From contig CAJINV010000004.1 in NCBI GenBank assembly GCA_905178155.1, positions 10,647,655 through 10,711,654 on the forward strand: a stretch of DNA of 64,000 nucleotides, written 5' to 3'. Made by a program: the position numbers and the translations under genes. This document shows, piece after piece, positions 4,403 to 49,540 of this stretch. Each line of letters starts with the position of its first letter. Within the stretch, counting starts at the first letter, position 1. The DNA is from Amoebophrya sp. A120 (Eukaryota > Protista > Dinoflagellata). Below the pieces are notes generated by a model. That model did not search any database. It saw only the letters and a program-made list of their open reading frames with translations, and was not told the origin of the DNA.

Positions 4403-7400
4403 ATGTCGTCCACCGGCGGCAAGCTGGATGCGTCTTCGGACGGTGCAGACTTGCACCTGACAACGACCAAAGACGTGATATCGTCGTCCGGGCGCACAAA
4501 TGATTCCTCATCCGCACGGAAAGGAACAAATAACACCGGCACCAGCAAGACGAGCACCCCCCTTATGAAATGTAAAAATGTCTGGGTCTGGATCTGGAAG
4601 AATGCAAGTTTGTCATGCTTGTCTGGCATGACTCGGAAATCTGTGATGCATAAGCACGAAAAAGCCTTCTTGCCTGTCATGCAAAAACGCAGTTTGCCAT
4701 GCGGAATACGTAAGACATGGCAGCCCAGAAATTTGTCATGCATAGCTGCGTATTGCAGTGCGTCTATCATTCATTTTTAGCATTACAAGTTTCCAGACCC
4801 AGACATTTTTACATTTGATACCCCTGAGCCTCCACGTCTCCGACTGGATCGAACTGTTTGGTTTTGGCTGGGGCCATATCAACTGCAAAAATGTCTGGGT
4901 CTGGAAGAATGCGAACTTGTGATGCGTGTTGCGGATCGTACAAAAATCAGTGTTGCATGACTTGCAAAAGGTCCCCATTTCTGGCCATGTTGAGAGGGCA
5001 TTTCTCATGCAGAATAGGCATCACCAAGGGGCTGCAGAACCTGTGATGCTAGGCCCTGCATTCCAGACCAGGCGAAGCTTGAAAAACTGCATGACAAATC
5101 TCGGAATCTTCCAGACCCAGACATATTTGCATTTGATAGGCCAGGTGAAGATTTTGAACAACGTGGGCGGGATTTGGCTCGCGGACGGCGCGGAGCTGCT
5201 CCTACTGTCCGCGTTAATCCGCGCAGTGTCTTTGGAGTGGGACTTGAACGCCGCGGAGCGGGGCGGGATCGTCTCTGTCGTGTTCATCGGTGTTCTGCTC
5301 GGAAACCTGCTTTCTGGCACGTTGGGCGACGCGATCGGTCGGCGGGTGGTGACGCTAGCCGGGTTTCTGTTTATCGTGGTCTTTTCCGTCTTGTCGGTCT
5401 TCGCCTGGTCCTTTTACAGCCTGGCTGCCTTTCGACTGGGCGTCGGAGTGGCATTTGGTATTTTTATCAGAAAAAATTGTTTGTTGCAGCATGGCTAATT
5501 GAAAATCGCACAGGTCCAACATTTTTGCTTTCCGTGAATATGTTTTGCCATCGTGTCAACGAAATAAAGCATTTTTGACGACACAAGTTAAGCAAGAGCT
5601 GCTCTTTAACAATAACAGGGATCGGGCAACCGTCCGGCGTGGCTTTGATGAACGAACTGGTCCCGGCGCACATTCGTATGGCGGTTCCTTCCCTCTGCAC
5701 GACCTACTTTGTTTGCGGCGAACTGTTCTCCATCTCCCTCATTTGTCTGAACGACCCGGACATGAAAGAGCTGAATTGGCGCGCTCTCGTCCTTTTCGGC
5801 GCCATCCCGTCCCTCATCTACGGAATTTGGGGACTTCACGTGCTGCGGGAGTCCGCGCTGTGGCTGCAAGGGAAAAACCGGACGGCGGAGGCGGTGGAAG
5901 TACTGGAGAAGATTCGGAGTGGCAACCGCGCTGCGGCGGCGAGTTCGTCCATTCTCCCGCCGATCAATTTTTTGCGTAAAATCCGTCGCGGCGAGCAGGG
6001 CAAAGCGTTGGCGCTGAAAAACGGGGTCAGCCTGGACGAAAACGTCACCGAAGCAGGAAACGAGGCGGCGAATTCCGTGTGGCGAGTCCCGCTCGTGCTG
6101 AAGGACCCCGAGGAGGACAAGGCCATGCCGTCGTCTCGTCGGGATATAATGACCGCCGGAGCATCAAATGCGGGACCAGCAGCGGCAGGCGACAATGGCT
6201 ACGCGGTTGTGGCGGTGGAAGACACGACCACGACCCGAAGTGCTGGAAATTATCATCCGCAAGTAGAACAAACGGGCGACACCGGCGGGCCGCCGGCGAT
6301 CGAAAAGTCGGAAGATGACTGGCTCCAGCGGTTCTTGTTGGTCATCTCTCCAAAATACTTCCCGACGACGTTTTTCCTCTGTTTCGCGCTGTTCACCTGC
6401 AACGTGGTCTTTTACGGTGGTTTGTACGTGTTTCCCCAAGTCCTCGCCGACATGGGTGAAACGCTACCCGTGAAACCGGCGATTTCCCTCATGATCGCCA
6501 CCTGCTTCGAGACCATCGGGGCCTGCTGTGCGTTTTTCGTCGGGTCGAATCTGCTGCGGAAACCCGCGCTGTCCGTTTGGCTCCTGTGCTCGATGTATCA
6601 AGTGTAAAAATGTCTGGGTCTGGAAGAGTGCGAACTTGTCATGCTAAATCTGAAGCATGCAAAAATCTGTGTTGCATGATAACCAAAAGCCGCCCAATTT
6701 CGACCAAGTCGGGAGGGAGTTTCTCATGCAGGATACGCATGAGAGAGATAGAGATTGCACAGAATCTGTCATGCTAGGTCCTGCATTCCAGGCTTCGTGG
6801 GTCATGGAAAAGCTGCGTGACAAATCGCGTATGCTTCCAGACCCAGACATTTTTACATTTGATACGATGTTCTGCGTCACCCTGTTCATCGCCGGCGTGC
6901 CGAAGGTTCTGCCCGGCCCGGAGACGAAAGCCGTGCCGGTTTTGGCCACGAGAACGAGCGCGTCTAGTGGTACGCCCTCCGGCGGCACAGGGTCATCTTC
7001 GTCTTTGTGGTCCGCCTCCCCGCACGAGCCGCCGATTGCGACTTCCACGGGCGTCACAGCCGCGGTGTCAGGCACTACAACTGGTGGAGAGCGGCTAGGA
7101 CCAGGAGCAGGAGCAGCGAGGCAAGAGGAAGTAGAGGACACCTCAAGTACATCTTGGGTCACTGCGCTTCTCGGGAAAAGCACGAAGAGTAAGCACAAGG
7201 ACGAGTATCTGCAGAAGGAACGCGTGGAACAAACTGCAGTGCCAGCTGCCACAACCAGTGAGAACACTGAGAGGGCTCAGCACAAGGAAAAACTCGCGTT
7301 GAAGAGCACACCGCTCGGGCCGGCGTTACTGGAGGACGAGGAAGAGACACCGCTGTCGGCGGGTGCAAGCCCCACGGCACCATCGGGCACAAATGATGCG

Positions 7401-8293
7401 GAGCGGTATGTGGTCGTGCCGAATCTGATTCAGAATTTTCTCGAGGTGGAGGAAGGAGAGAACAAAGACGCATCTACTTCTTCTTCACAAGACGCACAAC
7501 AGGAACGACAGCACAGTGGTGCATCAACTTCTTCTTCTACAGAGGGCAGCAACACAAGAAATCGCGGCCACAGAAGAGAAGTACCAGAGTCCCGTGGTTC
7601 AAATTCTTACACAGGAGCTGCCGCCCAGAAGCTCTTGCAAACACAACAGAAGAACTCGGCCTTGGCAGCGCACGAAGTTGTACAGTCTGCCCAGGAGCGA
7701 GAGGCCAAGCGGCTGGAGCTGGACGAGAAGCTGGGACACCGGACGCACGTCACGGATCTGCTCCTCCAGATTGGCCTGTGTGGACAGAAGGTCACCGTCG
7801 TCATGGGGTTTGCGCTGATCACGCTGTTCGCCATCGAATCCTACCCCACGCACTGCCGCGCCACCGGGGTCGGTGCGGGGATCGCGACCGGGCGGCTCGG
7901 CGCGATAGCGGTCCCGCTAATCTACGAGGGACTCAAAGAGTCGACGGGCACGCACGAGGCGTTTTTCGTCTTTGTGCTGGGGCTGATGTTCACGTCGTTG
8001 ATGCTGGTATACTGGCGTGGTTCAATGTTGAGTGTACGGTTTGGTTGTTTGTAAACATGATTGAAAGCGTAGTTGGAACGGCGTAAGGATTTGATCAACC
8101 CATTTTTATATGTTTCTAAAACCACAAACAGCTTCTCTTCCTGCCCCTGCGAGAGACCTCTGGCGCCTCTCTCGACGACGTGGACCAGGAAGTCGACAGC
8201 GGGAAGGAAACGCGCATGGCTTTCGATTATTTGTTCCGGACTAGTAGCAGCAAAGACGACGCGCCGCTTCTCCCCATGCCGAACACGCTGTAG
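4403..8293 (+). CDS. MFS transporter, SVOP/SV2-like (paralog 1)
   Basis: Exons ~4403-4563, 4826-4876, 5144-5457, 5619-6595, 6870-8006, 8132-8293. Motifs GFGWGQ, WLADGAE, GTLGDAIGRR, ESYPTHCRATG and LPLRET; 12 hydrophobic segments; GT-AG introns at 5458-5618 and 8007-8131. Confidence 0.9.
4564..4820. mobile_element. Introner, family A
   Basis: TATGAAATGTAAAAATGTCTGGGTCTGGA...TTCCAGACCCAGACATTTTTACATTTGATA; perfect TSD CCCCT; frame restored (TPL|SLH). Confidence 0.95.
4877..5138. mobile_element. Introner, family A
   Basis: Same TIR; TSD GGCCA; the join gives GFGWGQVKIL. Confidence 0.95.
6596..6864. mobile_element. Introner, family A
   Basis: Same TIR; TSD CGATG; the join gives LLCSM|FCVTLF. 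Confidence 0.95.
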
Positions 8294-9805: not shown

Positions 9806-12800
9806 ATGGCCGACCTGGCGGAACAACAAGTGGCCTCTTCAGCAGGTCCTCCTGCGCACCAGCAGGGCGGGACTACGTCTACGACGAAGTTTTCCACTAC
9901 TTTCGGCGCGAAAAGGATGAGCTCTTTCACTTCAGCGATAAACCCTTTTATGAGCAACAATCCGTCAACATCTGCGTACGAGGACAACAAGCTGCAATTG
10001 GAAGTCCACGAGTGGGTGGAGGTGATGGGCATGGGCAAGGCGCAGCTGGTTATTTCCAATCTCGGGTACGGCATTTGGCTGATGGACGGCGCGTATGCAT
10101 TGCAAAAATGTCTGGGTCTGGAAAAGTGGAACTTGTGTTGCATGTCTTGCATTCCTGAAAAATCTGTATTGCATACCTAGCAAGAAAGGCGCTACTTTTT
10201 CGTCCTACAAAAACGCAGTTTGTCATGCGTGCTACGCATCAGACGGCGTCAAGTATACTTGTCATGCTTGGCTGCACTTGAGAGCGCCAGTCTTATCCAA
10301 GCTTTAGCATCACAAGTTTCCAGACCCAGACATATTTGCAATCCATAGCGCGGAACTGATCCTGCTCTCGTCCCTGATCCGGGCGGTGGCGCAGTATTGA
10401 GAGGAAAAATCCCCCCTCCCCATATCGAAAAGGTATATTTGCAAAAATGTGTGTTGCGGATTTGAGGGCACAAATCACATCTGTCTTGCAAGAAGGCAAA
10501 CCCAGAGAATCCGCTGCCTTAGGGAGGCGATTTGTAATGCTGTTTCACCTACATGGCAGGCCTCTCTTATGCCAAGAGCCTGCAACAAAACACCCCTACG
10601 CAGGCTGGGGCTTTGCCTGTAGTGCCTCGCTGCAAGACAGGGCTGATTTGTGTACACAAATCCAGCAACAGAAGTTTCCGTTTCAATATGGGGAGGGGGG
10701 ATTTTTCATTTTGATACGCAGGAGTGGCAGTTCACCTCCATGGAGCGCGGCATCGTGGTGGGCATCGTGTTCTTCGGGGTGCTGGTGGGCAACGTGCTCT
10801 CCGGGTCCGTGGGCGACTCCCTCGGGCGCCGGTCCGCGGTGCTGGCTAGCTACCTGCTGGTCGGGATCTTCTCCGTCGCGAGCGTCTTTTCCTGGGACCT
10901 CTACTCCATCTGCTGTTTCCGGTTCGGCGTGGGCTTCGCGTTCGGCATCGGGCAGCCCAGCGGCATCGCGCTCGCAAACGAAACGGTGCCAACGGACTGG
11001 CGGATCTTCTTGTCCTTCGTCGGGGGAACCTACTTTGTGCTGGGGGAAATGTACTCCATCGTGCTCATCTGCTACGACGACATCCACATGCAGGATTTGA
11101 ACTGGAGGTAAGTGCTACCTGTTATCCTGCACATGGATTCATCATCGCTTTTTGTTTCTGCTGGCGATGTGATGTAGTCGCCATGGTGGAGATGTGATGT
11201 CGTGTGAGGATGATGAAATCCATCGTGTGTGGTGCATTTGTTCAGCAACAAAGACAGGAGCGATGAACTTGTTCTTTTGAAACGGGCCAATTTATTTTGC
11301 TCAATCCAAATTAATCCACCAGGTGGCTGATTTTGATGGGAGCGGTTCCCAGTCTGCTTTGGGGCGTCGCCGCGCTGCTCCGCCTCCCGGAGTCTCCGTC
11401 CTGGCTGCACTCCAAGGGGCGTTTGCGAGAGGCCGTGGAGTGTTTAGACTGGATGCGGCGGCAGAACTTCGAGTGGCGCAAGAAGGGGTCGAGTTTGCAC
11501 GCGTCCACCGAGTTGGCGCGTACCATCGAGCAGTCCAGCGGGCTCTACCCGGACGATTTTGCGCCCCGCGTCGTGGCGGACGAGACCGAGCTGGCGCCAA
11601 ATTCCATTTGGCGCGTTCCCATACACTTTCATGAGGAGGACCAGGAGGGTGCTGCGAATGGCGGAGGCAGTGCAGCGAACGGCGGCAGTCGTAGAACCTC
11701 CGCTGCACCACTACATCGCGCAACAACTATGGAGGAAGCTGCGGAGGAAACGAAGACTGGCGACGCGGTGGCCGCACCTGCTGCGGGCGAGCTCGAACAG
11801 AAAGAGGGGGACGAGACTGGAGCGAAAGAAGCAGCAGGAGAACAAGCAGCTGCAGGAGCCCCATCGATGAATGGAGCTGCATCGGGTTCTGCGGGAACAA
11901 AAAATAAGCCTCCTCCTCTTCACGAGAACCACGAATACCACCAGCAACATCCCTCTTCGAAGAAAACTTTTATGCAGCGGTTCGTGACCGTCATTTTGCC
12001 GCCGCACGTTGCGACCACGTGTTTCCTGGTTTTCTCGACCTTCACCTGCAATGTGGTGTACTACGGCGGCATGTACGTGTTTCCCCAGGTCCTTGCCGAC
12101 ATGGGCGACACGCTGTCCATCCCCGCCGCCTACAGCCTGTTCATCGCCTGTTTCTGGGAGCTCCTCGGGGCCGCCATCGCTCTGGCGGTGGGAGATCGGG
12201 TGTCGAGGAAGAAGGCCATGGTGATCTGGCTCATTTCCGGCTCGACGTTCATTTTCATGTTCATCGCGGCGCTGCCGAGTCTGAACCTGGACGCGCTATG
12301 CATTTGCAAAAGTATCGTTTTGTACAAGTATGAAGTAGTGTGAACTTCTGACTTGGAAAATAGAATTTGTATAATGCTGATTGGCCTACGCCTAGGCCTG
12401 GGATGAAGCATGAGATTTGCAACTTTGTCATGCAAGAGCACTGCAATTGCTACGACTGCGAAGATACTTTGCCTAGGATACGCGCCCAGTCACGAACACG
12501 ATAAGACCGATATGAACTTTTCCTCTTCTCACCGGTACAACGACGGCGAAGAGGAGGTCGTCATAGCCCCGGCCGGCGCCGCGGCGATGGGCCCGCCGCC
12601 GTTGATGCGGCAGGACATTTTTCCGGCCACCGAGGACGCCGTTTTGTCCTCGAAGGCTGCCCCGAAGGAACCGGCGGCAGCGCAGGAGAAGGACCCTTTT
12701 ATACTCGGCAGGCTCGGCGCAAAGCAAAGCAAGAAGATCACGGTGCAGATAACGACGAGTAGTGAAAAAGCGGGCGGGGCAGGAGCGAAGGCGAAGGGTG

Positions 12801-15391
12801 GAGGCGCCAAAAGTTCCCCGACAGAGGAATCTTCGTATCGAGAACAGAAAACTACAACTAGAAAGTCCGAGCCGTTTTCCACGACCCAAGCTGACCCCCA
12901 GTATCGTGCTGGTGAACCGACACAGCACAAAGGCTCAGCTACAAACCGAAGCCGAACGAAGGAAAACCGGAGAGAGCATCCTGGGGAGCAGAAACAGCAG
13001 AACAGAGCGGGAGCGGATGGAGAAGGGAGGGAAGGAAGAACTCCCACTGAGATGAACAAGGAAAAAGGAATCTCCGACCTGGAGTCTTCGGAAGACCGCG
13101 AGGCCGTGCAGACCGAGATCCCCATCGTCGCGCCGATAATCCCGCCCGCGCAGCTGATTGCGAGCAGCCACGAGGCGATCCTTGAGAAGGAGAACCAGCA
13201 GCCTGCGGGGACAGCGAAGTATGCAGCGGGGAGTCGTCGAGGTCGACGTGCACCTAGTACAACAACGGGAATAAAGCAGGAGGAGGGTCGTACACCAACC
13301 AGAAGCGGGACAACGCCTCCCGTGGTAGCACCACCACCGGCACAACCCAAGGAGCCAGCAAGAAAGCCGCCCCCCGAGGAACCGGCACCGCAGGCGAAAA
13401 CGGAGTTGATCGTGAAGGCCACGAGTGCCGGCCCGGTGTTTAAGGAGGCCGCGCCGTTCCGCGTTGCCTTGGACGTCCGCCACGACGCGCTCACCGGGCC
13501 ACTGTTCGGGCGAAAAGACCAGTCGCCAGCAACGCCTGTTTCGATCGGAGGGCGGGGTGGCGGGAGTAAGAGTGCTGGGGGTCTCGGAGGTGCTACGACG
13601 TCTTTATTGCAGACCCTGATCAACACTTGGATCGCGGGGGAGGGGCAGGAGAAAGAGAATGCGAAGATGACCAAGACGTCGCATGAAGAAGTTCTTGACC
13701 CTGCTTTCACTTCTACACACCGCAGCCACTCTGGTGCAGGAACCTCCGGGCGGCGGCCCGTGGCACCTGCTCGGGTGGGGCGCGCCTCCGTGGCCAAGAA
13801 GGCTGTGCAGGAGTACTTCTCTTCCAAGAAGAGAACTGCGAAAAATGGAAACAAGGCGAAGAAAACAACAAAAGAAGAAAATAAAAAATCAGAAGTAACG
13901 ATGATCAACGTGGTCCCCATCGTCCCCGATCCGCCTGTGTTTTTACAGCACCACGACGTAGGAGCAGCTGAGACACGACAAAAACAGACGTCTTCTACTA
14001 GCAGGAGGAGCGACAGCACCAGTGTTGGTCTATTGTCGCATCTGCTGCACCAGCACGACCAGAGAAATTATAAGCACCAGCATGAAGATCATCGGTTCCG
14101 AAGGGAGGAAAACACGGAGCGGACGCTGAGCGGAAGTGAATCTTATCAGGCTTTTTACAGAAGGAAAAATCATCCGCTGAAAATTTCTCAATCTGTCAGC
14201 AGTGCGGAGGCTGTACTGCAGCGCATGAAAACTACTAACCAGCGGAAGAGGAGGACGTCGGAGAAACGGAGAAAGTCTGGTGCCAGAGATTCATCGTTGT
14301 CGTCATCATCGTCTCGTCGGGGAAGGGGAAATGAAGATGAAGATGTCGTTTCAACAAGAACATCGTCACGGGGGAGCGGTGTTTCGTCTCCGCGCGGCGA
14401 GAGTGGTCAACAGCACAACCGCAAGGATAAAAAAGACACCAACGCTGCCACCCCCGGGAGGAGAAAATCAAGGTCACTTCGCGACAGCCCCGAGGAGCCC
14501 AAGACCGCGGTTGCGAAACGGTCGTACCAGACGTGGCAGGAGCTCTTGAAGAAGCAGCGGGACCGAAAGGCCAAGCAGGAACATCAAATCTTGAATGAGT
14601 ACCACAACCACGTTGCCATCGTTCGGGAGAAAACGAAGCAGACCGCCGCGGCGCAGCAGACAGAGCAGCAGAACCTGGAGAAGGAGCAGGAGCAGATCCG
14701 CCAGGAGGAGCTGCAGCAGGCGAAAAAGAAGAAAAAACTCGGGTTCGCGGAGACGCTGTTGGAAATTGGCCTGTTCGGGCAGAAGTTCGCGGTCATCATC
14801 GGATTCCAGACCTCGTACGTGATGGCCATCGAGATGTTCCCCACCAGTGTGCGCGCCACGGGCATGGCGGTGGCGCTGGCCGGGGGGCGCATCGGGGCGA
14901 TTGTCGCACCGTCGCTGTACGAAAAGATCCTGCTCGTGACGAACAGCCCCGCCGCGTTCTTTTTCTTTCTGATCGCGATGCTGGGAATCAACTTTTTCTT
15001 GCTCTTAGTCCTGCCCCTGCGGGAAACGGCAGGAAGGCCGCTGACCGAGACCGACAGCAGCAGCTCCGGGGCCAGCGAGCAGGAGGGACAGGAGGGAACG
15101 ATTGCTGGTGCCCTCGAGTCCTCCGATCCGTACGCGCCGAGGGTGATGCTGCTGGAGTTGCTGCACCCGGGCTACTACGAAAGCAAAATAAATCATGAAG
15201 ATCGACAATTTGTTCCAAGCGGTGACAAGAACGATCAAAACATCGCCGAGAAACCACGAAACGACGATTTTTATCAGAGGCAAAATGGAGGTACGACGGG
15301 GACCAGACCATCCACCCAAGACGAACCTGGTCACTCGCCTCTGCCGCCTCTCGCGCGACAGGCGGTGCCAGAGAAGAAAGGCGATGTGTGA
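9806..15391 (+). CDS. MFS transporter, SVOP/SV2-like (paralog 2)
   Basis: Exons ~9806-10093, 10353-10394, 10722-11107, 11323-12296, 12486-15391. Motifs WLMDGAE, GSVGDSLGRR, LPESPSWL, EMFPTSVRATG and LPLRET; clearly homologous to paralog 1; GT-AG intron at 11108-11322. Confidence 0.9.
10094..10347. mobile_element. Introner, family A
   Basis: TIR present; TSD GCGCG; the join gives DGA|ELILL. Confidence 0.95.
10395..10716. mobile_element. Introner, family B (AAAATCCCCCCTCCCCATAT TIR)
   Basis: TSD CGCAG; the join gives AVAQ|EWQF. Confidence 0.95.
12297..12480. mobile_element. Introner, degenerate TIR
   Basis: TATGCATTTGCAAAAGTATC...GATACTTTGCCTAGGATA; TSD CGCGC; frame restored. Confidence 0.85.
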
Positions 15392-27233: not shown

Positions 27234-27259
27234 ATGAAGTTGCATGGTCCTCAGAATAG

Positions 27260-29950: not shown

Positions 29951-29992
29951 TAGGAATTACGCATCTCATGCTGTCGCTTTCGTCTATTTCCT

Positions 29993-31918: not shown

Positions 31919-31989
31919 TAATCATCATAATTCTTGAACTTGATGGTTTATTAATTTGCTTGATGGACTTAGGATTAGCGCGCAATTGA

Positions 31990-32120
31990 GTGGCCACTAA
32001 CGAAAGACCAGTCGCGCGAAAAGCAAAAGTTCCTGTGTGGAGATGAACGGGGGAGTTCTATTTGTCCGCCACGGTAGTAAGTATTTATTTTTGTTCCTAA
32101 CTTCTACAACGACATGTTAT
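31990..32120 (+). repeat. ~125-bp direct repeat, copy 2
   Basis: Diverged copy of 26303-26435. Confidence 0.8.
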
Positions 32121-38849: not shown

Positions 38850-41744
38850 AGACAAAACGCCTCTGGAGCAGGCGTCCAAGAGAAACACTGGCAGGAGCGC
38901 CGAGGGGACACGACCAGGTCGTGCAAAATATTTGTGGAGATCCTCCCGACCACGCAGAAGCACGACCTGTACTGTCTGGTCGGGGGCATGGTCGTTGGAA
39001 CTACGTAACAAGAAGATGTTCTGTAGTAATCCAGATCCATGACCAGGACGAGCACAAATGCCTCGCCGACTGTATCAGAGCTGCCAAGTTGTAGAAAAAA
39101 AACAACCTCCACACACTATGCACATTTAACGACACGCGCACGACGGGGAACATCGAATAAAAACGCGGAATTTTTTCTTTCCGTGCACGACGACCGGATT
39201 TTTTGAAAGAGACGGAGCTCTTGGTCAAGAAACAGCACATGAGGGATAGTTTTCCTGAGACTCTGACGTTTTACTTGGCGCTTCCATGATGTTGGAAAGT
39301 GCTTTGATTTCCACTGCGCCGCAGCACATAAAAACATGAAGTGATGAAAAAAACAAAAGCATGGTGGTTCTCAGACGGTAGCAGCTTGCCAGTGTTGAGG
39401 CAAGATGGGAACAAAAAGGGAGGAATTTATTAATCCTATGTGGTGTTCCGCTTTTTTCTAAACGTGAACTACTGTAGTTGCAGTAGAATCCACCCGGCTT
39501 GTGTCGTGACTGCTGGTAAAGGTAAAACAAAGAAAAGATCGTAGCTGTTGCGTCTTGATGTGAATTTTGTGACCGCTGTGCGCCTGGTGACACGTATCAA
39601 TCACAATCTCTTTTGACATTTCTACGCGAGGAACTTCGTGTGCAAAAAGTAGAAAAAACGGACCGTAGTAAACGCAAAGACTCACAAGGATCCAATGCTG
39701 TTAATTTTGAACTATGTTTGATTGTAGTGTAGGACGAGGACTACGAAAAATGCCGACGACAGTGGTGCAGTCAGGGCATCAATGAATCTGTTGGCGTATT
39801 TATGAAAGAAACCGAACTGAAGAAATAAACTCAGGCTCAGCTGGCTGTAAACCTGTTTCGATTTGCATTTTCGTTTTCTAGCTCGATAATCTCACACTCA
39901 CTGCATCACGAACAACTCTCCGCGTGCGCTATTCCGTGCTAGCATCACGGCCAGACATGCACATGCTGCGGGGAAAAGATCGAAATGCTTTGAGGAAAAA
40001 CGAAACCAGGCACGATATGCTCTCAATCTGAACGACACTCTGATGACAGCTCTGCCACTCTGTTCTTTTCTTTGCGTGTATTCACTACGTTTGCTGCATA
40101 TACACTCTTGATAACGGAAGATTAGGAGAAAACGGAATAAACCGGATGTGTCGAGTACCGTAGTCCGCGCTGTAACGTAGTGGTCTTGGTGACAGCACCT
40201 CCGTGATTATTACCTATGTAAAAAAGGTTGAGGTTCTGATATCTTCTTCACGCCAAAAATAATGTCATTGTCACTACGTCACGGACAGGGAGTCGGCGCC
40301 GCGTCTCGCACATCTTCCCCAGGGCATCGGCGTTGCCACGCGAGCTTACCGCAGCGCAGCCCTAGCGCCAGCTCTGGTCAGGTGCTGGCAGTAACATGTT
40401 GAACCATGTTTCTTTCCGGTGATCCGCGTCTACTTGAGAAGTCGGTCCAGAGACGAGGACGCCGCGGAGGCGCTGGCTAGCCCAGAAGGTTCGTCTTGTT
40501 GTCCTCTGCTAGCGGCAAGAACTGAGCAGTACCTCGGCCAGATCATCAGCAAGGCAGGGTCACCGAAAGTACAGAAGCAAAAACCACGGCCATGTACAAC
40601 AATTTCACTGCGTTTGCGCACGACAATTTGTTCGTGGTCGGACAGGACAAGAAGGACAAGAAACACAATATCGCTCGTCCTGGTGTTACAATCTCAACTG
40701 TTACAATTTCATTTTTTCAACTGTTACAATCTCAACTGTTACAATTTCATTGTGGAAAATCTGCTTTTAACCGCCCATTCTGCAGCAAGACAAAACGAAG
40801 ATTTTCATTGTAACAGTCGGGGTGTACTAGCACCTGAGCGCACTATACACAAGACCATCTGTTTATCGAGGAAAAAAATCATGTGAGTGTAACTTTTTTG
40901 GGCTGATGGCATGACTTGACAGATCTCTTCTACATGACAGAGAAAACCAGTAATGCGTGGCTAGTACGTGACAACGTATGACGTGAATAGAGGCTCTTTT
41001 CGAGGGTGTTTGGCATGGTAAGCGATAGTTGTTTTAAGTACATAGTTCTGCATCACAGACCTACACCCACACAGCTTTTTTCTTGCATACGGCTGCTGGA
41101 ACGTGCCGGAGAAACCGTTCCGCGAGTACCTCACCAAGAAAAGCGAGTTATCCATCTGAAAAACCTACTCACCCCACGTTTGTCATGCACTTTTGCATTC
41201 CATTTCCAGGCGGATGTCTCATGCGGCATTGTTTTTGTCGTGCGGAGGCCGCAAAGGTTCTGGATTTGTCTACCAGATTCCCAACCTATACTTAACATGG
41301 GGTGACGAGTACTACGTTTTTCCTGAGGATGCGAGTACGGGGGCGGCAGCAACATTTACTGCAAGGGGTTCTGCGTGACCGGCCCGAAATGGTTCCCCTT
41401 CCTGCGAACCTTCTCCCTGTCCGCGCTCCCGCTCGCCTTCTACCTCTACTTTCTTGTCCCCAGTTACCTGCTCGCAGATGACCGTTACCTTCCCGATGAG
41501 GGTCCCACTTCCCCGGTCTACGTAGCAAAGTGAAAAATAATGTTGATGATGTTGTTCTCCCCACAGTAGTGTGGAAGTGCGTGTCGTTGCAGGATTAGTT
41601 TTTTCGCATGAGTTGGCTTGTTCTGATAACGTTGTATCAATGTGAATTTGAGGACGTTGACATCGGAATGCAGACAAGAAGGCTGACAAGCGAACAATAC
41701 TGCAACGCGTTCTTCTTCTACGTCAATCGGTTTGTTCACTTTGA

Positions 41745-44700
41745 TACCCCGGGGTGGGACCCCTCAGTCCCTGGTACGCCTGCTGCGGCGTCGACGCCCA
41801 GCTCTGGAGTGAAGGGCCCCCCGCGGGGCGGCCGCCGGGTCACCCCGAGAGTACCGTCGGGAGCAACATTGGGGCTGCAGAAGGCGCAGAACCACCCCGG
41901 GCGGCGGAAGTCATAAATCTCCTGGCGAGCAGTGGAGGACGACCTGGGCCGACTGCGACGGAAGGACCTACTTTTGTCGCAGCTCCTGCCGCAGGAGTAC
42001 CAGCATCGTCTTCGTCCGCCGGGGCCTCGGTGGACCAGAGTGTTTTTAGCCCCGGCAGCAGCACGAGAACATCTTCACGCAGCGCACGGATAGCAGAAGG
42101 GCCCGTTCTATCCTCAGGAAAAACGTCCCCACACCAGAGTCAAGATGGGAAATCTGCTAGACAAATCAGCCAGCTTTCGCTGTTTCGCATGACAGGTTTA
42201 CTCTCATAGTGTAGTCCTGTCTCGCTAGTTCAGCAGCGTCACAGATCTAGCATATCATGCTGATTCTAGCATCACAAACTCCAAAACACAAATAGAAAAT
42301 GCTTCTCTCATGGGGCGCCGCATGGGAAACTTTTTTGGCATGCAGATTTGCATGACAACTCTGGGAGGGGGACGTTTTTCCGCAGGATGCGTTCGTGTTG
42401 AAGATCGCGTCGAGAATGGAGGTGATGACCCATTGCCTATCAAATGTAAAAATATCTGGGTCTGGAAAAATGCAACCTGTCATGCTAAATCTGAAGCGTG
42501 CAAAAATCTGTGTTGCATGATTACCAAAAGTCGTCCAGTTTTGACCAAGTCGGGAGGGAGTTTCTCATGCAGGATAGGCATGAGAGAGAGCGCACAGAAT
42601 CTGTCATGCCGGGTCCTGCATGCCAGGCCTCATGGGTCATGGAAAACCTGCATCACAAATGTTGCATTCTTCCAGACCCAGACACTTTTGCATTTGATAT
42701 TGCCAGCACGGCCAGAACAGGAGTACACCGCGCTATCTATCCCCGAGAAAAAAGCAGACAGGGCATACTTGCAATGCAATGAGAAATTATGATTAACAGC
42801 AAAATGAAAATCTGTCATGGGCGACCCCGTCACTCCCCATAGCATCGTGTTTAAGACATGCCATACAGATTTTTTCGTCTATTCATTTTTGCATATTATA
42901 CAAATATGCCCTGCCGGTCTTTTTCTGTGGGATACTATCATCTGCTGGAATTGCGGGTGAGGAATCTACTTCGGTTGGCACGACCTCGACGAAGTCGTCC
43001 GATTCGCGAAAGCTGGAGCCGAACGATGAAAACGAAAAACAAGACACGGCTGCTCAAGACGGTGATCGTCAAGATTCGTCAAGAGATGAACGGCAAAGCC
43101 GCAGGAGAGACGAGCAGGACATAGAAATCGCTCAGGTGTTGCAATGTCGACCGTAGTTGTACTCCGTAGTTTTCAGAGACTACATCAAGGTCATGATCTC
43201 GACTGTAGAAGTAACCCCACAGGTAATGTTAAGATACGCATGACAAGTTCATCTTTTGAGATTCTTAAACTGGACATGGATCTTCAAGGGAAACTTGTGT
43301 TAAGTTTGTGAAAGCGGCAGGGGGGGAGATTTGGATATTCCTCATACTTTTCACGCAAAACAAAAGACTCCGGCCCTCATAATTGCAGCATGCTATTGCA
43401 GCACCTGAGCGGGCTATATGACGCATCTTTTTCAAGCCAGAGGTCCGCCTTTTCGTCATCGGGGGCGGAATTGCAAGACGTAGAACGACAGCGGGTTGTG
43501 ACGCCGCAGTCAGAGCAAGCACTGGAACCGCTGCCGCAGCCGAATCATATGCCAGGAAAAATATGTAGTTTCAGTCTCAACGAATAACCTTTGCAGAGGA
43601 CTCAGCAACACAAATACGGTCAGCACGGAACACAGAATCTGTCATGCGTGAGACACAAGGGACGGATAGGGAAAGCATGTAATATGTAGTGAGGTCACCG
43701 AACGGTTCTAACCGGGGAGTTTTTTTGACAGCTCCCGTGAAAAACGACCGGCAGTTTTCAAGCGGCCGGAAGGCTTTTTTGACATAAAAAATTTTCAATT
43801 ATCAAGCGGCCGGGGCTTTGTTGTCAAACAAGCCCGGTCGAAAGCTATCGATTCGCACTGGATAAAACGACGCAGGGGAGCCGGCAAAAGGGGCGCCCTT
43901 CTGAGGCGCCCGCCGCCTTAGTTTCTGGCGATTTGGGGCGCCCAAAAAGGGGCGCGCAAAAAACGCGCCCAAAATCAGAACAGCGAAACAGCATGGCACG
44001 GCCGCGATTTCGGAGCATTTTGGGCGGCCGCGAAAGCGGCCGCCTTTTCGCCGTTTTCAGAGCCTGGGAAGCTTTGCAAAACGCGCTGGCGAGAAATATA
44101 AAAACGAAAAAAAGAAAAAGCGCGCCAGACGCGCAAAGCCAATCCGCATGCTATGGGCCCGATTTTTCGTCGCTTTTTGGGCGCCCCCCGTGGCGCCCGG
44201 ATCGGCCTCATAGCATGGGGGCTGGCTTTCGGAAAGGAATTTCGGAAATTTGCCAAAATTTGCGACGCTTATCAGGCGGCCGCCATACCGTGGGGCCTAA
44301 CGTTACTCACGGCGGTACGGCGGGCCCAGAAAAATCAAAGCCGCGACCAAGGCGGCGACCGGCAAGAAAACGCCCACGACCTCACTACCTCCGCCCCGGC
44401 GGCTATATTTGGTACAGAAGGCGCGTCCTCTCTCACCCGGCGAGCATGGCAGTATCGTGTTGAGACTGCGTACACAGTTTTTTTTTGCGACACATGAAGC
44501 ACCGTTTTCCACATCTGCAGTGGGAGAGACAAGGGCGTATCCAGTGTTATAAAAACTGTGTTGGTGTAGGTCTCTTGGGCTACTGAACACCATCAGTCAC
44601 AAATTCGCTCTGCATAAAAAGAAAAAAGACGCGTCATGCACAGGTAGTACAGCGGATTTAATTTTCCGTGAGAAGACGCTATCAAGGTTGTAGTATTCCC

Positions 44701-45850
44701 TCCACCGTAGCTGTACAAGTACATATTTTCTGCATCTCAGACTTGATGCACCAATGTAGGTGTTATTTTCTTCTTCGATAGGGGGCTAAGCAGGCTAACA
44801 GACAGGGCAGAGAGGACCGCGGCGCCCGCAGAGGTTGAGCACACCCTGCCACGCACCACAGCTGTAGTAGCCGCCTCGGGTGCAGCCCAGCAGCGACCAC
44901 CTGCGCAATTTACAGTGGGAGGAGCCGACCGAGCCACAGACGATGCTGTTGGACCGGAGATGACAAGAACGTTAACGACGGCCAGTCCGACAGTCCAGTC
45001 CGACAGTCGGAGAGCATCTCGTGTGACAGATGTTGTCCTTCCAAGCGGAGCTGAATTACGAACTGAGACCGACGTATGCGAGTGCACAGCTCCTCTCTTC
45101 GTTCTCATTTACTCCCATCATGCAAGAAATCATAAACACCGATGCGATTGCTCCACCCCTTGCATGATTTTGCCAGTCTTGTTTCACGCATGAAAATTTC
45201 ATCTCGGATCCCAAGCAGCACCACAATCTCACTCTGCGTGCAGACGTGTCGTGCGAGGGAAGCTCGTGCTGTCCTTTTGCTGGTGTTGCTGTAGAAGATC
45301 ATGCCACGCAAATGGGGGGGAGGGGGGGCTGTGCACTCTCAAACAACATCAAGAGCGGCAGCCAGAGCAGTTGGCTGCTGTATCTGCTTATGGATTGCAA
45401 TTTAGTGTCTGGGACTGAGTCTAAAAGGTTGCGACTTGTGGTGCTGCATTTGAATTCGATACAGATCATCTGTATTGCAACCTCACGGGTCATCCAAAAT
45501 ATGCTTGTGAATGATAGGCAAACGTTGCATTATTTTTCCAGACCAAGACATATTTTCATTCGCACTGGATACCGCTCGACAGCCTGTTGAAAACGGCGTT
45601 TGACGACGAGAAGCACCAGCAGACGTCCTTGCAAAGTCGAAAAATGGGCGAGAAAGTAACATCTTCAGGTGTAAGGATAGAAGGCTCAGCGCTCCTCGCT
45701 ACAACGGGGTCGACCTCCAAGACAGGTCGTGGCAGAACATCGACGTCTTCCGGAACGACCATAGCCGAAGATTCTGATTCCTCGTCGGAGTCGCTGCTAG
45801 CCGAGATATCATGGTGGACAACCCCCCCCTCTCCCCCTCGTCTCCCTCAT
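41745..45850 (+). CDS. Low-complexity coding exons, probably the long N-terminal region of the DHHC gene (true start may lie near 39750-40600)
   Basis: One frame runs from ~41750 to ~43135 after removing three introners; further exons at ~43440-43545, ~44790-45073 and ~45220-45790. Confidence 0.5.
42109..42389. mobile_element. Introner, family C (TATCCT.AG.AAAAACGT.CCCACACCAGAGT TIR)
   Basis: TSD CGTTC; frame restored; interior similar to 51388-51667. Confidence 0.9.
42438..42699. mobile_element. Introner, family A
   Basis: TSD TTGCC; near-identical to 6596-6864. Confidence 0.95.
42738..42934. mobile_element. Introner, family D
   Basis: TATCCCCGAGAAAAAAGCAGACAGGGCATA...TATGCCCTGCCGGTCTTTTTCTGTGGGATA; TSD CTATC; frame restored. 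Confidence 0.9.
43683..44414 (+). mobile_element. Non-autonomous Helentron/Helitron2-like repeat, copy 1, nested in an older introner (~43548-44736)
   Basis: 5' GTAGTGAGGTC pairs with subterminal GACCTCACTAC (44378-44388), followed by hairpin CCGCCCCGGCGG; homologous to 51722-52536. Confidence 0.65.
45389..45571. mobile_element. Degenerate introner
   Basis: Family-A-like ends; flanks CTGCT/CCGCT. Confidence 0.6.
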
Positions 45851-46134
45851 TTATTTATAATAGGGCATGATGTCTACGTCTAGCAACACAAACAAGCTAC
45901 TAACACAAACAACCGGCAAAGTGCATTTTTTGCATGGCAAAGTCACCTCCGCGCGCGAACTATAGAGAGTGCAGTTTGCGATTGCGCTTCCAGAACTTCT
46001 CATGCAAATTAATTGAGCAAACTTATTACATACATGCACTTAGACAGACTCAGACAGGAAGATTCGGCATGTTGCAGAGCAAGAAACATGTGGGGGAGTG
46101 GGAGTTGTGCCCTTGCACACAAGAAGCCGCCCTC

Positions 46135-49100
46135 AGAACTTGAGGTGGACGACCCCGTTGATGTGGCGGAGTCGCGATTCTACTTGAAGTTCATGTGCAC
46201 GCTCGGAGCTTTCGTGCTCGTCATGGAGATCCTGACCGCGTTCAGCAACCCGGGAATCGTTATGCCTCGCAACTGCTCGTGTCTGGGTCTGGAACTACAC
46301 TGCAAGAATAAACTTCTCGACATTCATAATTATTCCAAGATTCGACCTGATCGACATTGTTCTAGACCCGGACATTATCCAAGAAAAAAACATTGTAGGT
46401 GTATACTTCTTTGGAGGAACAGCATTACAAATTTGTTTGGCATGACAGCAAAAACCTGTCATGCGCAGATAGTACGTGAAAACGCCCTTTAACAGACCCT
46501 ACGATGCATGCCAAGCATGACAGACGCAATCACTTTGCATGTTGCGCATCACAAACTTACAGTAACAGCGTTTTTTTCTTGGATAGACATCACATTTGCA
46601 GAGGATAACCCTGCCGCGCGCACCAAGGTCCGAGCGCCGCGGGCGACAGCTCTATCACCTGAAAAATTTTCGCTAAAGCGATGCCATATCTTATGTTTAT
46701 GGTCATGCATGAGCAAGTGGACTAGCCTGAGACATAAAGTTGTTCCACCAGCGCCAAGGGTCGGAGATGAAACACTTTTATCTTGGGTCAGGGTACTATA
46801 CCTAAGAATGACAAAAAATTTGGCTACTTATCGCATGCAAGATGACGAGACAAAAGTTTTCCTGGTTGATACACTGCCGCCAAGGCTGATGCTAGTCCGG
46901 GGGTGCGTGGTGAAGCAGAAATGGTGTCCGACTTGCGACATTTTCCGCCCGCCGCGGTCCAAGCACTTATGAGAATGCACAAGTTCGTCTTCCCCACCTC
47001 CTGTCATGTTGGAAGGCTGACAGCAGGGCTTCCCTAAGGAAATTAATCCTCCTCATGTGTCATGCAAAAGCCCACATCCTCCAGATCCAATGCTGTGCTC
47101 GCCTCTTGGCACTTTTTTTACACACGAAACCTTTCGCAAGTCCAAAGTCAAACAGGACTACATTTGAAGCGTAGAGCTGTTTTCATAAAAAGAGTGAATT
47201 ATCATGATTGCTGTTGCTTGTGATTGTGGATGTCATTTTGATGCTTGATATGGTGCTGATGACGGCAAATGACGGGGAGCGGAAGTTGTTCACTCTCATA
47301 GCAGTGTGCGTACTGCGACAACTGCGTCCTGCGCTTCGACCACCACTGTAAGTCTATCTATGGATGACGATATGTCTATGCTGGTGTTTCCGTTTATCTA
47401 TAGAAAAGAACAGAATTTTTTTGTCGCAGACGATAGCTACACCTGCCAGGCTGAATGTGAGTCGTAGGCTAGTTTCATAAGTGGTTTCACTTCATATCTG
47501 CGCATGACAAGTTTTTTGCTGTCATACCAATCTGATTTGTAAGGCTTTTCTTCCAAAAAAAGGATGATGTTTGTGATTCGCGTTTTGTGGCGAGATTTCT
47601 TCTCTGCTGCGAAACTTGCTTTGCAACTCGCAATACCTATGACCCAGAAAGTCGCAAAAAGGATTCAACAATTTGTCATGCTTTTTTGCCCTACCCCTAT
47701 AGAAACATCTCACGCGACACTCAGCAACAAGGCAAAAAATCAACTACATGCTACTTTCAGACCCAGACTTATTTGCAGTGGTGGATCTATAGACCCGTTG
47801 ATGTGCGTTTGTAGCAATTTGATTCACGTGTTCGTTGTATGTTGCGCTGTCATGAGAGAGCAGAAGTAATATGATTTATCTCCTGCTTCCACCTCAGGTA
47901 CTTGGCTCGGGAACTGCATTGGGCTCTTCAACTATCGCTTCTATCTTATCGCACGAAAAAACTTTACTTCCACTGTAAGAACGACTTGGCAGCGTTTGCA
48001 TCATAATTTTACCCTACATGCCGAATAAAGAATTACCCTGCGCTTTTGCTGAGGGAAAACACACCGACGAATCGATCCACTGTTTTGGACCAGAGGGTCC
48101 CAAGAAAACTAGACGTGACTGGTGAGTTCATGCTCACGTCCGGCCGGACGGGCGACACGCGACCACGGGTGGCGGCCGGCTTGCTGAAAAAGTAGATGAG
48201 GCGCGTCTGTAGCTCCTGCACGCTCTGCAGCGAAAGATGCGCCCGTCGCCCGCGTAGCCGGCCTCCCCGTTGACATACACCGCCCCCGGGCGGGAATGAG
48301 GCTACTTACAACATGCTGCTTCAATGAGCGTTTACACCACGACGCGCCGCTTGCGTTAGCATGCGTAGCTGCGGTGGTCCGTGCCCGGCGCCCGACGCCC
48401 GCACCGGACTAAGAAGAAAAAATAGGTCCCAACAAGCTCCTGACCATGCACTCAGGTCCTGCGTTCGGCCACAACTTTTTGAAACAAAGCTCGGAAACAA
48501 GGCTGCGACCTGCCCCCGGGCACCTGCCGTCCGTGACCTTCCCGGTCACGTCTAGGCCCTTTGTTATATTGCCAGGCATGTCGAGCAACAGAGCAGACAC
48601 TGCGTTGCACAAGTTTACTGTTTACTTATAGTACATGACAATAGTGAAGACGTTCAAGAAGTAGTTTTTGTTTGCGATAGATCTGGTGTTGATTTATTCC
48701 ACCACGTTGCTGCTCTCCCTGGTGCTCGTATCCGCGGTATCAAAAGGAAAAATCCCCCCACCCCATATCAAAAAGGAGTTTCTGATGCTGGATTTCAGTA
48801 CACAAACCAGATTTGTCTTGCAGTAGAGTACTGCAGGCCCATATCATGCCAATGTAGCGAGGTTTTGGCCTAGGCACTTAGCATGCGGAACGTCTCCGCT
48901 GTAGGCCCAACAGCATTACAAACCGCCTGCATAATGGGGCGGAGCCTCTGCCGTTGCTTTCTTGCAAGACAGACAATATCTGTGGTCACAAATCAGCATC
49001 ACAAATTCTCTGAGGCGTTCCTTTTCGATATGGGGAGGGGGGACTTTTCCCTTGAATACGCGGCCCACGTGATCACGCAGTCTGCACGGACAAAAAGCTT

Positions 49101-49540
49101 CCTCGAGTGTGTGATACCAATTGTAAAAATGTCTGGGTCCTCTGGAAATTTGTGATGCTGGGTGGCGTCTCATGATGAGGCTACAGATGCTGGCTCAGCA
49201 TGACAAGTTTCTGAGCTCCTAGGTGTTGCCTATTCTGCATGACGAACTGCGCTTCTGCATCACAGAAAAGCGGAGCTCTTGGGTAACGTGCATGACAGAT
49301 TTAAGGGTCATGCCAGACAAGGAAGCATGACAAACATGAATTCTTCCAGACCCAGACATTTTTACATTTGATATGTGACCAATCTAGACAACTTGACGCT
49401 CTACCTGTTCTACCTGTTTTGTCTCGTGGCGTGGTGCGGAGTTGCCCTCTTGGCCTTGTACCACAGCGGCATCACGTTGTACAACCTCACGACCAGCGAG
49501 CACGTCAAAAATGTGGACAAAGTGAATCCGTTCGACATGG
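46135..49540 (+). CDS. DHHC palmitoyl acyltransferase, core exons (gene probably extends upstream and to ~54478)
   Basis: TAFSNPGIVPR; KWCPTCDIFRPPRSKH|CAYCDNCVLRFDHHC|TWLGNCIGLFNYRFY; NLTTSEHVK; NPFDMG. Confidence 0.92.
46261..46607. mobile_element. Degenerate introner
   Basis: TATGCCTCGCAA...TTGCAGAGGATA; flanks ATCGT/ACCCT; the join gives NPGIVPR. Confidence 0.7.
46968..47300. mobile_element. Introner splitting the His-Cys of the DHHC cysteine-rich domain
   Basis: TATGAGAATGCACAAGTTC...GAAGTTGTTCACTCTCATA; flanks GCACT/GCAGT. Confidence 0.85.
47947..48679. mobile_element. Introner containing a nested MITE
   Basis: TATCGCACGAAAAAACT...AGTTTTTGTTTGCGATA; flanks TATCT/GATCT; the join gives NYRFYLVLI. 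Confidence 0.8.
48109..48555. mobile_element. GC-rich MITE with ~24-bp TIR
   Basis: CTAGACGTGACTGGTGAGTTCA...TGACCTTCCCGGTCACGTCTAG; the terminal CTAG or TA could be the TSD. Confidence 0.7.
48738..49058. mobile_element. Introner, family B (opposite orientation to 10395-10716)
   Basis: TSD CGCGG; frame restored. Confidence 0.95.
49115..49373. mobile_element. Introner, family A
   Basis: TSD TGTGA; the join gives ECV|TNLDN. Confidence 0.95.

Follow-up and report, generated by a model that had tools for sequence, protein, structure and literature searches.

Within a 64-kb window of the Amoebophrya sp. A120 genome, the whole stretch of DNA on which all evidence below is based, + strand genes are interrupted by related elements that point in both directions, and the question raised by this locus is how coding sequence can be freed of such an element whichever way it is inserted. 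The elements, their TAT-N7-AAA ends, the 5-bp repeats and a hairpin model are already published (Farhat et al., 2021); what is added here is the use of both orientations and a fixed register of cutting. The preferred reading, to which a probability of about 0.7 is given, is that these are MITE-like introner elements that are present in DNA, absent from RNA to the base, and likely cut by way of their own mirror-image ends, with the interior ignored.

Element families and their host genes

Four annotated proteins of Amoebophrya sp. A120 match exons of the window with 100% identity, and all are encoded on the + strand. These are an MFS/sugar transporter (P0002, 933 aa, 4403..8290; five introns, three of them elements and two GT-AG), a second MFS transporter (P0003, 1531 aa, 9806..15388; four introns, three elements and one GT-AG), a zinc-finger-like protein (P0004, 461 aa, 32877..35860; two introns) and a DHHC palmitoyltransferase (P0001, 804 aa, 40592..50423; 22 introns, 20 element-type and two GT-AG). 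The entries for P0001, P0002 and P0003 read "unnamed protein product [Amoebophrya sp. A120]", and record 19 of RNA contig X6 covers the P0001 gene from 40132-50625.

Six elements in these genes are MITE-like: their inverted ends read TAT..ATA, and a target duplication of 5 bp flanks them. With element orientation expressed relative to the copy at 4564, defined as +, family A1 is found at 4564..4820 (+, duplication CCCCT) in P0002, at 10094..10347 (+, GCGCG) in P0003, at 35044..35295 (-, GCTCT/GCTTT) in P0004, and at 49115..49373 (-, TGTGA) in the DHHC domain at aa 709 of P0001. Family B is found in P0003 at 10395..10716 (+, CGCAG), where it follows the A1 copy at a distance of 42 nt, and in P0001 at 48738..49058 (-, CGCGG), within the DHHC domain (aa 692). 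The direct repeat is exact at five of the six, and at 35044 four of five positions agree, the mismatch being synonymous. Family A2 copies occur in P0002 at 4877..5138 (+, GGCCA; 267 nt removed) and 6596..6864 (+, CGATG; 274 nt removed), in P0001 at 42438..42699 (+, TTGCC), and at 56829..57102 (-, ACGAG). An exon of 51 nt, 4821-4871, separates the A1 copy at 4564 from the downstream A2 copy at 4877. In total, self-BLAST and interior comparison assign eight copies in the window to family A, two to B and three to C, and 14,547 contigs of the DNA run match 20 kb, mostly at elements.

The sequence-only reading had described 4564-4820 and 10094-10347 as inverted relative to 35044-35295 and 49115-49373, and family B as inverted between its two copies, and both descriptions hold. 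In a self-BLAST of the 64-kb window, the source of all pairwise matches, minus-strand matches join 4586-4820 to 35279-35044 (244 nt, 77.9%, E 5e-32), 4564-4741 to 49373-49198 (76.2%, E 2e-16), 10104-10228 to 35285-35163 (74.8%, E 5e-7) and, for family B, 10390-10723 to 49062-48731 (338 nt, 73.7%, E 4e-28). Plus-strand matches join 35044-35295 to 49115-49373 (88.8%, E 8e-85) and 4586-4810 to 10110-10337 (72.5%), and the plus-orientation similarity of the inverted pairs is confined to their ends of roughly 30-44 nt. When 30 nt are trimmed off both ends of every element, the interiors still match in minus orientation, with 112 bits for 4564/35044, 92 bits for 4564/49115, 57 bits for 10094/35044, and 110 bits versus 34 bits in plus for 10395/48738. 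A direct interior match is absent from the trimmed pair 10094/49115, whose inversion follows via the other pairs only. Counted by interiors within the window, the orientations divide 5:3 in family A and 1:1 in family B, both orientations being present in each.

The annotated proteins map to the + strand only if the element plus 5 nt is taken out at each site, which removes 262 (257+5), 259, 327, 257, 326 and 264 nt at the six elements in order of position, and which upholds the proposal that they lie within + strand coding sequence and restore the frame on removal. At 10094, the removal fits both the length of the RNA contig and an open frame of 1558 codons, and both junctions in P0003 (10094, 10395) align gap-free to an uninterrupted exon of its paralogue P0002. 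The Pfam DHHC match, 627-754 of P0001, is unbroken across both inverted elements. Opposite-orientation copies of A1 and B are thus removed from + strand coding sequence, and removal is independent of orientation, as had been proposed. Family A2 behaves alike, though the host transcript strand of its one inverted copy, at 56829, is only inferred: the interior matches 6596 (220 bits) and 42438 (248 bits) in minus orientation, an RNA joint, 56823>57103, skips 279 nt (274+5) in three of four runs, and once the element is taken out, an open frame of 241 codons results on the + strand against 150 on the - strand.

Borders and cut register

Joints in RNA-like contigs of runs X3, X4 and X6 are precise across the elements at 6596, 42438, 56829, 42109, 42738 and 54014. 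At 6596, X3 record 10 joins 6590 to 6865; at 42438, the joint 42431>42699 skips 267 nt in three of four runs (X3, X4, X6), and the mapping of P0001 agrees. In the same contigs one ordinary GT-AG intron is spliced out and a poly(A) end is present; the runs are labelled "RNA?", which is a guess, and their assembled contigs are blind to retained or rare forms.

Ordinary GT-AG introns are present at 5458-5618, 8007-8131, 11108-11322, 38491-38754, 47348-47897 and 49541-49774. At the six elements, a direct repeat allows several placements of the border, and neither GT-AG (0/6) nor GC-AG (0/6) was found at any repeat-allowed offset by reading the sequence and by an offset scan. The scan took in 29 introns mapped from three proteins and five RNA joints; the element at 35044 lay outside it, and offsets beyond its window at 4564 and 42738 were completed by eye. 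The element at 4877 is the sole element-type intron that can be read as GC-AG (offset 1). The sequence-only reading had described the elements as mostly without GT-AG ends; the exact junctions of the six show no such ends and no use of cryptic GT-AG sites.

All informative imperfect duplications fit a single register (offset 4): each copy of the duplication is cut after its fourth base, which places the 5′ cut 1 nt ahead of TAT and the 3′ cut 4 nt past ATA. This offset is allowed by all 25 element-type introns in annotated proteins and by all six further ones known from RNA joints. It is capped at 4 by four introns (43122, 45075, 49809, 54014) and floored at 4 by seven (40864, 43548, 44538, 46261, 46968, 53400, 54014). 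In the decayed A-like element 54014..54292 (GTGAA/GTGCT), the joint 54012>54297 has no shared letters, and the offset is therefore exactly 4, with 1 nt, TAT..ATA and 4 nt removed. At 49809..50330 (TGCAG/TGCAC), the downstream copy's fifth base is kept in the mRNA, and thus the offset is at most 4; a piece of the X6 RNA contig begins at 50331. At 46968..47300 (GCACT/GCAGT), protein mapping shows that a His is kept (the upstream copy's fourth base), and thus the offset is 4 or 5. An RNA joint with three shared letters (43117>43420) together with protein mapping limits the offset to 1-4 at 43122..43418 (GGACA/TGACG), and a joint with two shared letters (45071>45346) limits it to 2-4 at 45075..45343 (CGACG/CAACA). 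None of these five copies has an assigned orientation. The young A1, A2 and B copies hold no informative duplication, five of the six described above being perfect and the mismatch at 35044 synonymous; the register is read on older copies of no assignable orientation, and is therefore extended to both orientations by symmetry only. At offset 4 the ends of the six are TT..CC, GT..GC, GT..CA, TT..TT, GT..CG and AT..TG, and no consensus is seen at the first or last intron base of the elements.

The 5-nt repeat is exact in 16 of the 33 elements listed. Copies with decayed repeats, namely 54014 and the element at 46653 (AGCTC/CACTG), are still removed, and because they are cut at the usual register the repeat is dispensable; it has the look of a duplication made at the target site on insertion, not of a signal. 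The sequence-only reading had made removal depend on the symmetric terminal stem together with the repeat: the first half is partly supported, the symmetric ends, which fold into a stem, being the sole feature common to both orientations, and the second half is not supported.

Recognition and removal of the elements

In copies of families A, B and C, the terminal arms measure 25-41 nt with 85-97% complementarity. Over 33 elements the arm consensus is T1 A2 T3 C/G4 ... A11-15, which is the A120 end motif of Farhat et al. (2021), TAT followed by about seven variable nucleotides and at least three A. T1 and A2 occur in 33/33, an invariance that is partly circular because TA ends helped to choose element boundaries, with T3 in 29/33, A12 in 29/33 and A14 in 28/33; the other arm is alike. 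In minimum-energy folds the terminal stem is predicted in both orientations, and ten A1, A2 and B copies have fold z scores of -6 to -13 in either orientation. Among element-type introns, 30 of 32 have 12 or more of their initial 25 nt paired with their final 25 nt, compared with only 0-6 nt in the six GT-AG introns. The predicted stems span about 15-35 paired positions, from intron position +2 to -5, and the cuts fall in the unpaired flanks of this long stem. Two elements contain a nested second element, such as the one at 49828-50038 (AAAAT) within 49809..50330, and both are still removed via the outer ends.

Since each arm is the reverse complement of the other, an element keeps its stem and end sequences when flipped. 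The two arms may pair in the pre-mRNA and so draw the cut sites together, and the asymmetry of 1 versus 4 nt would stem from the polarity of the RNA rather than from the element. In the introns at 44538 and 53400, terminal pairing is absent from the minimum-energy fold and the register is unchanged, which favours recognition of the end sequence over recognition of the stem.

As catalyst, a divergent spliceosome without U1 is favoured, at a little under even odds within the confidence given to the overall reading, because the intron start N↓UAU(C/G) (the arrow marks the border) agrees at +2 and +3 with the G↓UA at which GT-AG introns begin. The two starts are in register within the same genes. 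For the spliceosome to read UAU, the long stem would have to open. We know of no precedent for a spliceosome indifferent to which base stands first and last in the intron.

The chief alternative, possible but less likely than not, is RNA-level, end-guided removal by a dedicated non-spliceosomal endonuclease and an RNA ligase, which would measure from the hairpin base, a mode of action already put forward for euglenid nonconventional introns, and release the intron as a circle. Such a pair would suit cuts at fixed distances from the stem in arbitrary sequence, the lack of consensus at the first and last intron base, and a terminal stem present in 30/32 element-type introns versus 0/6 GT-AG introns; euglenid nonconventional introns are alike and leave as circles, no lariat being formed (PMC11282704). 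However, the 5′ cut falls where a canonical G↓UA start would place it, the two introns for which no terminal stem is predicted keep the usual register, the failure to detect U1 snRNA in either strain would stay unexplained, and 15% of A120 GT-AG introns share the layout of inverted and direct repeats (Farhat et al., 2021).

Far less probable is excision at the DNA level, with RNA copied off element-free templates. Ciliate IESs are TA-bounded, transposon-derived and precisely removed from genes, and the A120 elements likewise start and end with TA and resemble DNA transposons with a target duplication. However, contigs of the DNA-like run X1 pass from exons into the elements that RNA-like runs skip, and one of them crosses a whole low-copy element, 12297-12480. 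Depth in X1 is 41-45 at elements, equal to that of 16 kb of single-copy flanking DNA, and excision of the IES kind, which the sequence-only reading had offered as an option, is therefore unsupported. No precise excision is found among the 15 X1 joints listed (359 further joints lie beyond these), in assembled contigs from which rare excised molecules could escape. Moreover, ciliate IESs are removed from somatic DNA and leave one TA, whereas the A120 elements stay in DNA, are missing from RNA only, and leave one 5-nt repeat; the cut falls inside the duplication, whereas a transposase would cut at the element end.

Equally improbable is that the junctions arise from reverse-transcriptase template switching or assembly and that the mRNAs keep the elements. 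The RNA data are assembled contigs, and direct repeats beside a strong hairpin are a classic setting for template switching. Against this, no letters are shared at the joint 54012>54297, joints across decayed repeats keep one register rather than falling at random spots within shared letters, and an ordinary intron is skipped in the same contigs. In addition, the elements have stop codons in every frame, and retained copies could therefore not yield conserved DHHC and MFS proteins. Least likely of all is ordinary splicing at cryptic GT-AG or GC-AG sites within the elements or close by, which ordinary introns in the same genes and the reading of 4877 might recommend, but for the six elements it is refuted by exact junctions, in which the removed length equals element plus 5 nt (6/6) and GT-AG is absent at every allowed offset (6/6).

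Relation to known introns

Introner elements were reported as part of the non-canonical intron set of Amoebophrya sp. A120, with inverted repeats (8-20 nt or longer) at intron ends, 1-5 nt from the splice sites, and direct repeats of 3-5 nt across exon/intron borders (5-bp in the legend of Fig. S19), along with a comparison to MITEs and strain-specific families (Farhat et al., 2021; BMC Biol 19:1, PMC7789003). The elements of the window are the same ones, as judged by organism, RNA-supported non-canonical borders, end repeats, motif and families. The main and searchable supplementary text of that paper uses "orientation" for genes only and does not discuss that of elements relative to their hosts, nor does it contain the word "lariat", although its figures may show more. 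It gives no single register, whereas here every informative case agrees with one, and the repeat proves dispensable.

Spliceosomal Introners of Micromonas, Aureococcus, Polarella and others are also intron-creating transposon copies with terminal inverted repeats and target-site duplications (Huff et al., 2016; Gozashti et al., 2022, PMC9860276; Gozashti et al., 2025, PMC12130899). They differ in that they supply or recruit GT/GC-AG sites, of which the six elements have none at allowed offsets. Insertion in the opposite orientation is acknowledged in the methods of Gozashti et al. (2022), and the pipeline of Gozashti et al. (2025) required 5′-to-5′ alignment of family members, so that flipped copies would be split or missed.

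Closer in several respects are the nonconventional introns of euglenids, which share non-canonical borders, staggered end pairing, TSD-like repeats, a likely MITE origin and coexistence with spliceosomal introns (Milanowski, Guminska et al.; PMC11282704). In Euglena, release as circles and late removal have been shown (PMC11282704). However, euglenids are an unrelated lineage, their stem is short (+4..+6 with -8..-6; PMC11282704), and the register also differs, here lying outside the stem at 1 nt 5′ and 4 nt 3′. It is conceivable, though doubtful, that in Amoebophrya most introns leave by a second, non-spliceosomal route, in which an RNA endonuclease-ligase would take the base of a transposon-derived hairpin as its reference point and cut 1 nt 5′ and 4 nt 3′ in any sequence and in either orientation, having arisen independently of the euglenid one. 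If this were true, a gene could take up any DNA transposon bearing these ends without harm.

Element design and orientation of copies

The window has a G+C content of 51%, with long open frames almost all on the + strand, and a search for inverted termini bordered by direct repeats places the six elements under study (4564, 10094, 10395, 35044, 48738, and 49115, each named by its start coordinate) among more than 30 of one design. Elements end in TAT(C/G)...(C/G)ATA, with arms of 25-41 nt and a 5-nt direct repeat directly outside them; this repeat is exact in 16 of the 33 elements listed and in five of the six, the remaining one (35044) reading GCTCT/GCTTT. Families with unrelated arm sequences have an arm outline in common, namely T1 A2 T3 C/G4, about six variable bases, and A11-A15, and this TAT-type outline matches that in the available text of Farhat et al. 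(2021; PMC7789003). The elements of the window are these published A120 introner elements, with which they agree in every defining feature tested.

Copies of one family were claimed in the sequence-only reading to occur inverted relative to each other, and self-BLAST of the window confirms these pairs. Minus-strand matches join 4586-4820 to 35279-35044 (244 nt, 77.9%, E 5e-32), 4564-4741 to 49373-49198 (76.2%), 10104-10228 to 35285-35163 (74.8%), and, in family B, 10390-10723 to 49062-48731 (338 nt, 73.7%, E 4e-28). Same-orientation matches join 35044-35295 to 49115-49373 (88.8% identity) and 4586-4810 to 10110-10337 (72.5%). Because inverted ends match both ways, interiors were compared again after trimming 30 nt from each end, and the inversion persists: the A-type copies 4564, 10094, 4877, 6596, and 42438 have one orientation and 35044, 49115, and 56829 the opposite, and the two B copies, 10395 and 48738, point in opposite directions (110 bits on the minus strand vs 34 on the plus). 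The pair 10094 and 49115 gave no direct interior match after trimming, its relative orientation following only via other copies, and all orientation counts refer to the 64-kb window.

Mini-exons of 33-51 nt often part paired elements (4821-4871, 10348-10389, 42390-42431, 42699-42731, and 49059-49109), an arrangement that may come from a preference for inserting nearby or from one target being hit more than once. Further TAT..ATA elements or repeats lie beyond the mapped coding sequence at 51044-51322, 51388-51667, 51722-52004, 62139-62445, 2278-2445, and 384-475. Tandem repeats of about 110 nt (29314-29934) and about 66 nt (55959-56219) occur on the + strand in or beside open frames.

Host genes and removal at the RNA level

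Single-exon queries retrieved annotated Amoebophrya sp. A120 proteins at 100% identity, all encoded on the + strand: P0001 (804 aa, DHHC palmitoyltransferase by Pfam), P0002 (933 aa, MFS/sugar transporter by Pfam, 4403-8290), P0003 (1531 aa, MFS transporter by Pfam, 9806-15388), and P0004 (461 aa, described as "unnamed library, zinc-finger-like"). Many neighbouring elements lie within 50 nt of each other, and for this reason one-by-one removal with 150-nt flanks failed for many of them; the four proteins were instead placed on the window by a small protein-to-genome routine. Each of the six is skipped as precisely the element plus 5 nt, which upholds the proposal that they sit in + strand coding sequence whose frame is restored on removal: 262 nt at 4564 (P0002), 259 nt at 10094 and 327 nt at 10395 (P0003), 257 nt at 35044 (P0004), and 326 nt at 48738 and 264 nt at 49115 (P0001).

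In P0001, the sites of the two inverted copies correspond to residues 692 and 709, within an unbroken Pfam DHHC match (627-754). The P0003 junctions (residues 94 and 108) align without gaps to P0002, the paralogue next to it, in which this exon is uninterrupted, indicating that 10094 and 10395 were inserted after the gene duplication and that their removal restores conserved sequence. The two tandem paralogues, 41% identical over 518 aa, have no introner position in common, so that insertion again postdates duplication.

The DHHC gene contains 22 introns, 20 of the element type and 2 GT-AG. One of the latter (47348-47897) includes 73 nt (47485-47557) with 84% similarity to the inside of element 46376-46585, but inverted. 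Between the introner elements 40669-40847 and 40864-41089 lies a 10-nt micro-exon (40853-40862), and its ten letters are present between 40668 and 41094 in RNA contigs of three runs. Downstream of the stop are family C copies and a repeat also found at 43683-43963. The 1344-nt intron 33029-34372 of P0004 is non-canonical (TG..CC at the leftmost placement), has ends that are not TAT-type (CTTACAGAAATT ... AATTTCTGTAAG), and has an interior packed with long repeats, both inverted and direct (pairs I1-I10); it is possibly another element class.

Two nested cases were found in which an element, 49828-50038 (exact repeat AAAAT) or 46376-46585 (exact repeat GACAT), lies inside an older one, 49809-50330 or 46261-46607, respectively. 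Protein mapping shows that both composites are cut out via their outer ends, and the interior of an element therefore seems irrelevant to its removal.

Sequencing runs were available as assembled contigs, X1 and X2 being DNA-like and X3-X6 initially taken for RNA by guess. The latter behave as RNA, with an ordinary GT-AG intron spliced (contigs pass directly from 38490 to 38755) and poly(A) at one contig end. Exact RNA-contig joints remove element 6596-6864 (6590 to 6865), 42109-42389 (286 nt skipped), 42438-42699 (267 nt), 42738-42934 (202 nt), 54014-54292 (284 nt), and 56829-57102 (279 nt). Since 56829 is inverted relative to 6596 and 42438, removal of family A2 in RNA is seen directly for both orientations, with the host strand at 56829 taken from the longer + frame. 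An RNA contig of 5100 nt over 9514-15603 fits removal of 10094 and 10395 both in its length and in its open frame of 1558 codons. RNA depth is zero in the bin 51875-52541.

Excision from DNA, in the manner of ciliate IESs, had been offered as an alternative. Contigs of the DNA-like run pass from exons into elements, a 16.5-kb DNA contig crosses the low-copy element 12297-12480 where an RNA contig skips 12291-12479, and element-bearing DNA contigs have the depth of single-copy flanks (41-45). Removal therefore takes place at the RNA level, and DNA excision is unlikely, although contigs would miss rare element-free DNA. The X1 joints listed (15, with 359 more) are dominated by repeat-to-repeat joints. 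Raw-read RNA runs under the same species label yielded five reads, all on repeat ends (X9), or none (X10).

A single cut register

An exact repeat leaves six equivalent placements for each junction, and at none of them does any of the six elements present GT-AG or GC-AG, in keeping with the earlier claim of removal mostly without GT-AG ends; offsets were read directly from the sequence, a supplementary scan covering the six except 35044, with partial offsets at 4564. Only the neighbouring copy 4877 is readable as GC-AG, at one offset, and use of cryptic GT-AG sites is unlikely.

At positions where the repeat copies disagree, the base present in the mRNA reveals the copy from which it came, and the number of upstream repeat bases retained (k) can be bounded. 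The four proteins contain 25 element-type introns, and all of them allow a value of 4, as do all 6 additional ones known from RNA joints. Upper bounds of 4 come from 43122 (GGACA/TGACG), 45075 (CGACG/CAACA), 49809 (TGCAG/TGCAC), and 54014, and lower bounds of 4 from seven introns (40864, 43548, 44538, 46261, 46968, 53400, and 54014). The joint from 54012 to 54297 shares zero letters, giving k = 4 exactly. RNA-joint ranges equal the protein ranges at 43117>43420, 45071>45346, 44536>44785, 43546>44497, and 41520>41750, where both kinds of evidence exist. A reverse-transcription artefact is unlikely.

The sole common solution is an intron made of the last repeat base, TAT...ATA, and the first four repeat bases, and this single register is new here. 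The copies informative for it are old and of unassignable orientation, the young A and B copies having perfect repeats. The mismatch at 35044 was set aside as register evidence, both readings encoding Leu. A Euglena-like pyrimidine|purine preference at the cut was too weak, base 4 being C in 15/33 and base 5 G in 11/33.

Copies in which only 2-3 of the 5 repeat positions match are still cut in register, so the repeat is not a signal, contrary to the role first given to it. It also follows from the common register that introns start N|UAU(C/G), in the same register as the GT-AG introns of the host genes, which start G|UAU, G|UAA, or G|UAC.

Terminal stems, candidate catalysts, and implications

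When folded as + sense RNA, all ten A1, A2, and B copies have their ends joined in a long stem, whichever way the element lies (z -6 to -13). Pairing between the first and the last 25 nt was counted in minimum-energy folds: it involves 12 or more of the first 25 nt in 30 of 32 element-type introns, and 0-6 of them in six GT-AG introns. Two introns, 44538-44780 and 53400-53792, have TAT/TAG..ATA ends, lack such terminal pairing in these folds, and are still cut in the common register, which makes them useful natural tests of stem vs sequence.

Removal takes place in RNA, is indifferent to element orientation, proceeds without GT-AG, and follows a single register tied to the ends; of the original interpretation, end-guided and orientation-blind removal is supported, while a role for the repeat and a DNA-level route are not. 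Pairing of the arms could draw both cut sites together, a flip of the symmetric element would alter neither stem nor end sequences, and the 1-versus-4 asymmetry could stem from RNA polarity. The favoured catalyst, with a probability of roughly 45%, is a divergent spliceosome lacking U1, because the 5′ register is canonical and, in the available text of Farhat et al. (PMC7789003), U1 was detected in neither Amoebophrya strain and 15% of A120 GT-AG introns have the same layout of inverted and direct repeats. The main rival, somewhat less likely, is a dedicated endonuclease-ligase measuring from the hairpin; a route of this kind has already been suggested for the nonconventional introns of euglenids, which, in the portion of that account available, leave circles and no lariat (PMC11282704). 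An Rfam scan of the window returned zero matches, and the window therefore offers no snRNA gene to compare with the element ends.

The searchable main and supplementary text of Farhat et al. (PMC7789003) does not address element orientation, a single cut register, or lariats, and the searchable literature does not state element orientation or mechanism for A120 introns. For spliceosomal Introners, opposite-orientation insertion is recognized in the methods text of Gozashti (2022; PMC9860276), while the 2025 introner survey, in its accessible text, demanded same-orientation alignment (Gozashti, 2025; PMC12130899); surveys of that kind will undercount such families.

More than 60% of Amoebophrya introns lack GT-AG, and their removal has been a question since 2021. 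Models must now accommodate three constraints, namely that interior and orientation are immaterial (flipped and nested-bearing copies being removed), that the flanking repeat is no signal, and that there is one cut register relative to TAT..ATA, its 5′ side in the canonical splice-site register. For gene finding in the A120 genome, this gives the rule that an intron is 1 nt + TAT..ATA + 4 nt. The elements themselves were already known and the added constraints are modest, yet they make the mechanism more testable.
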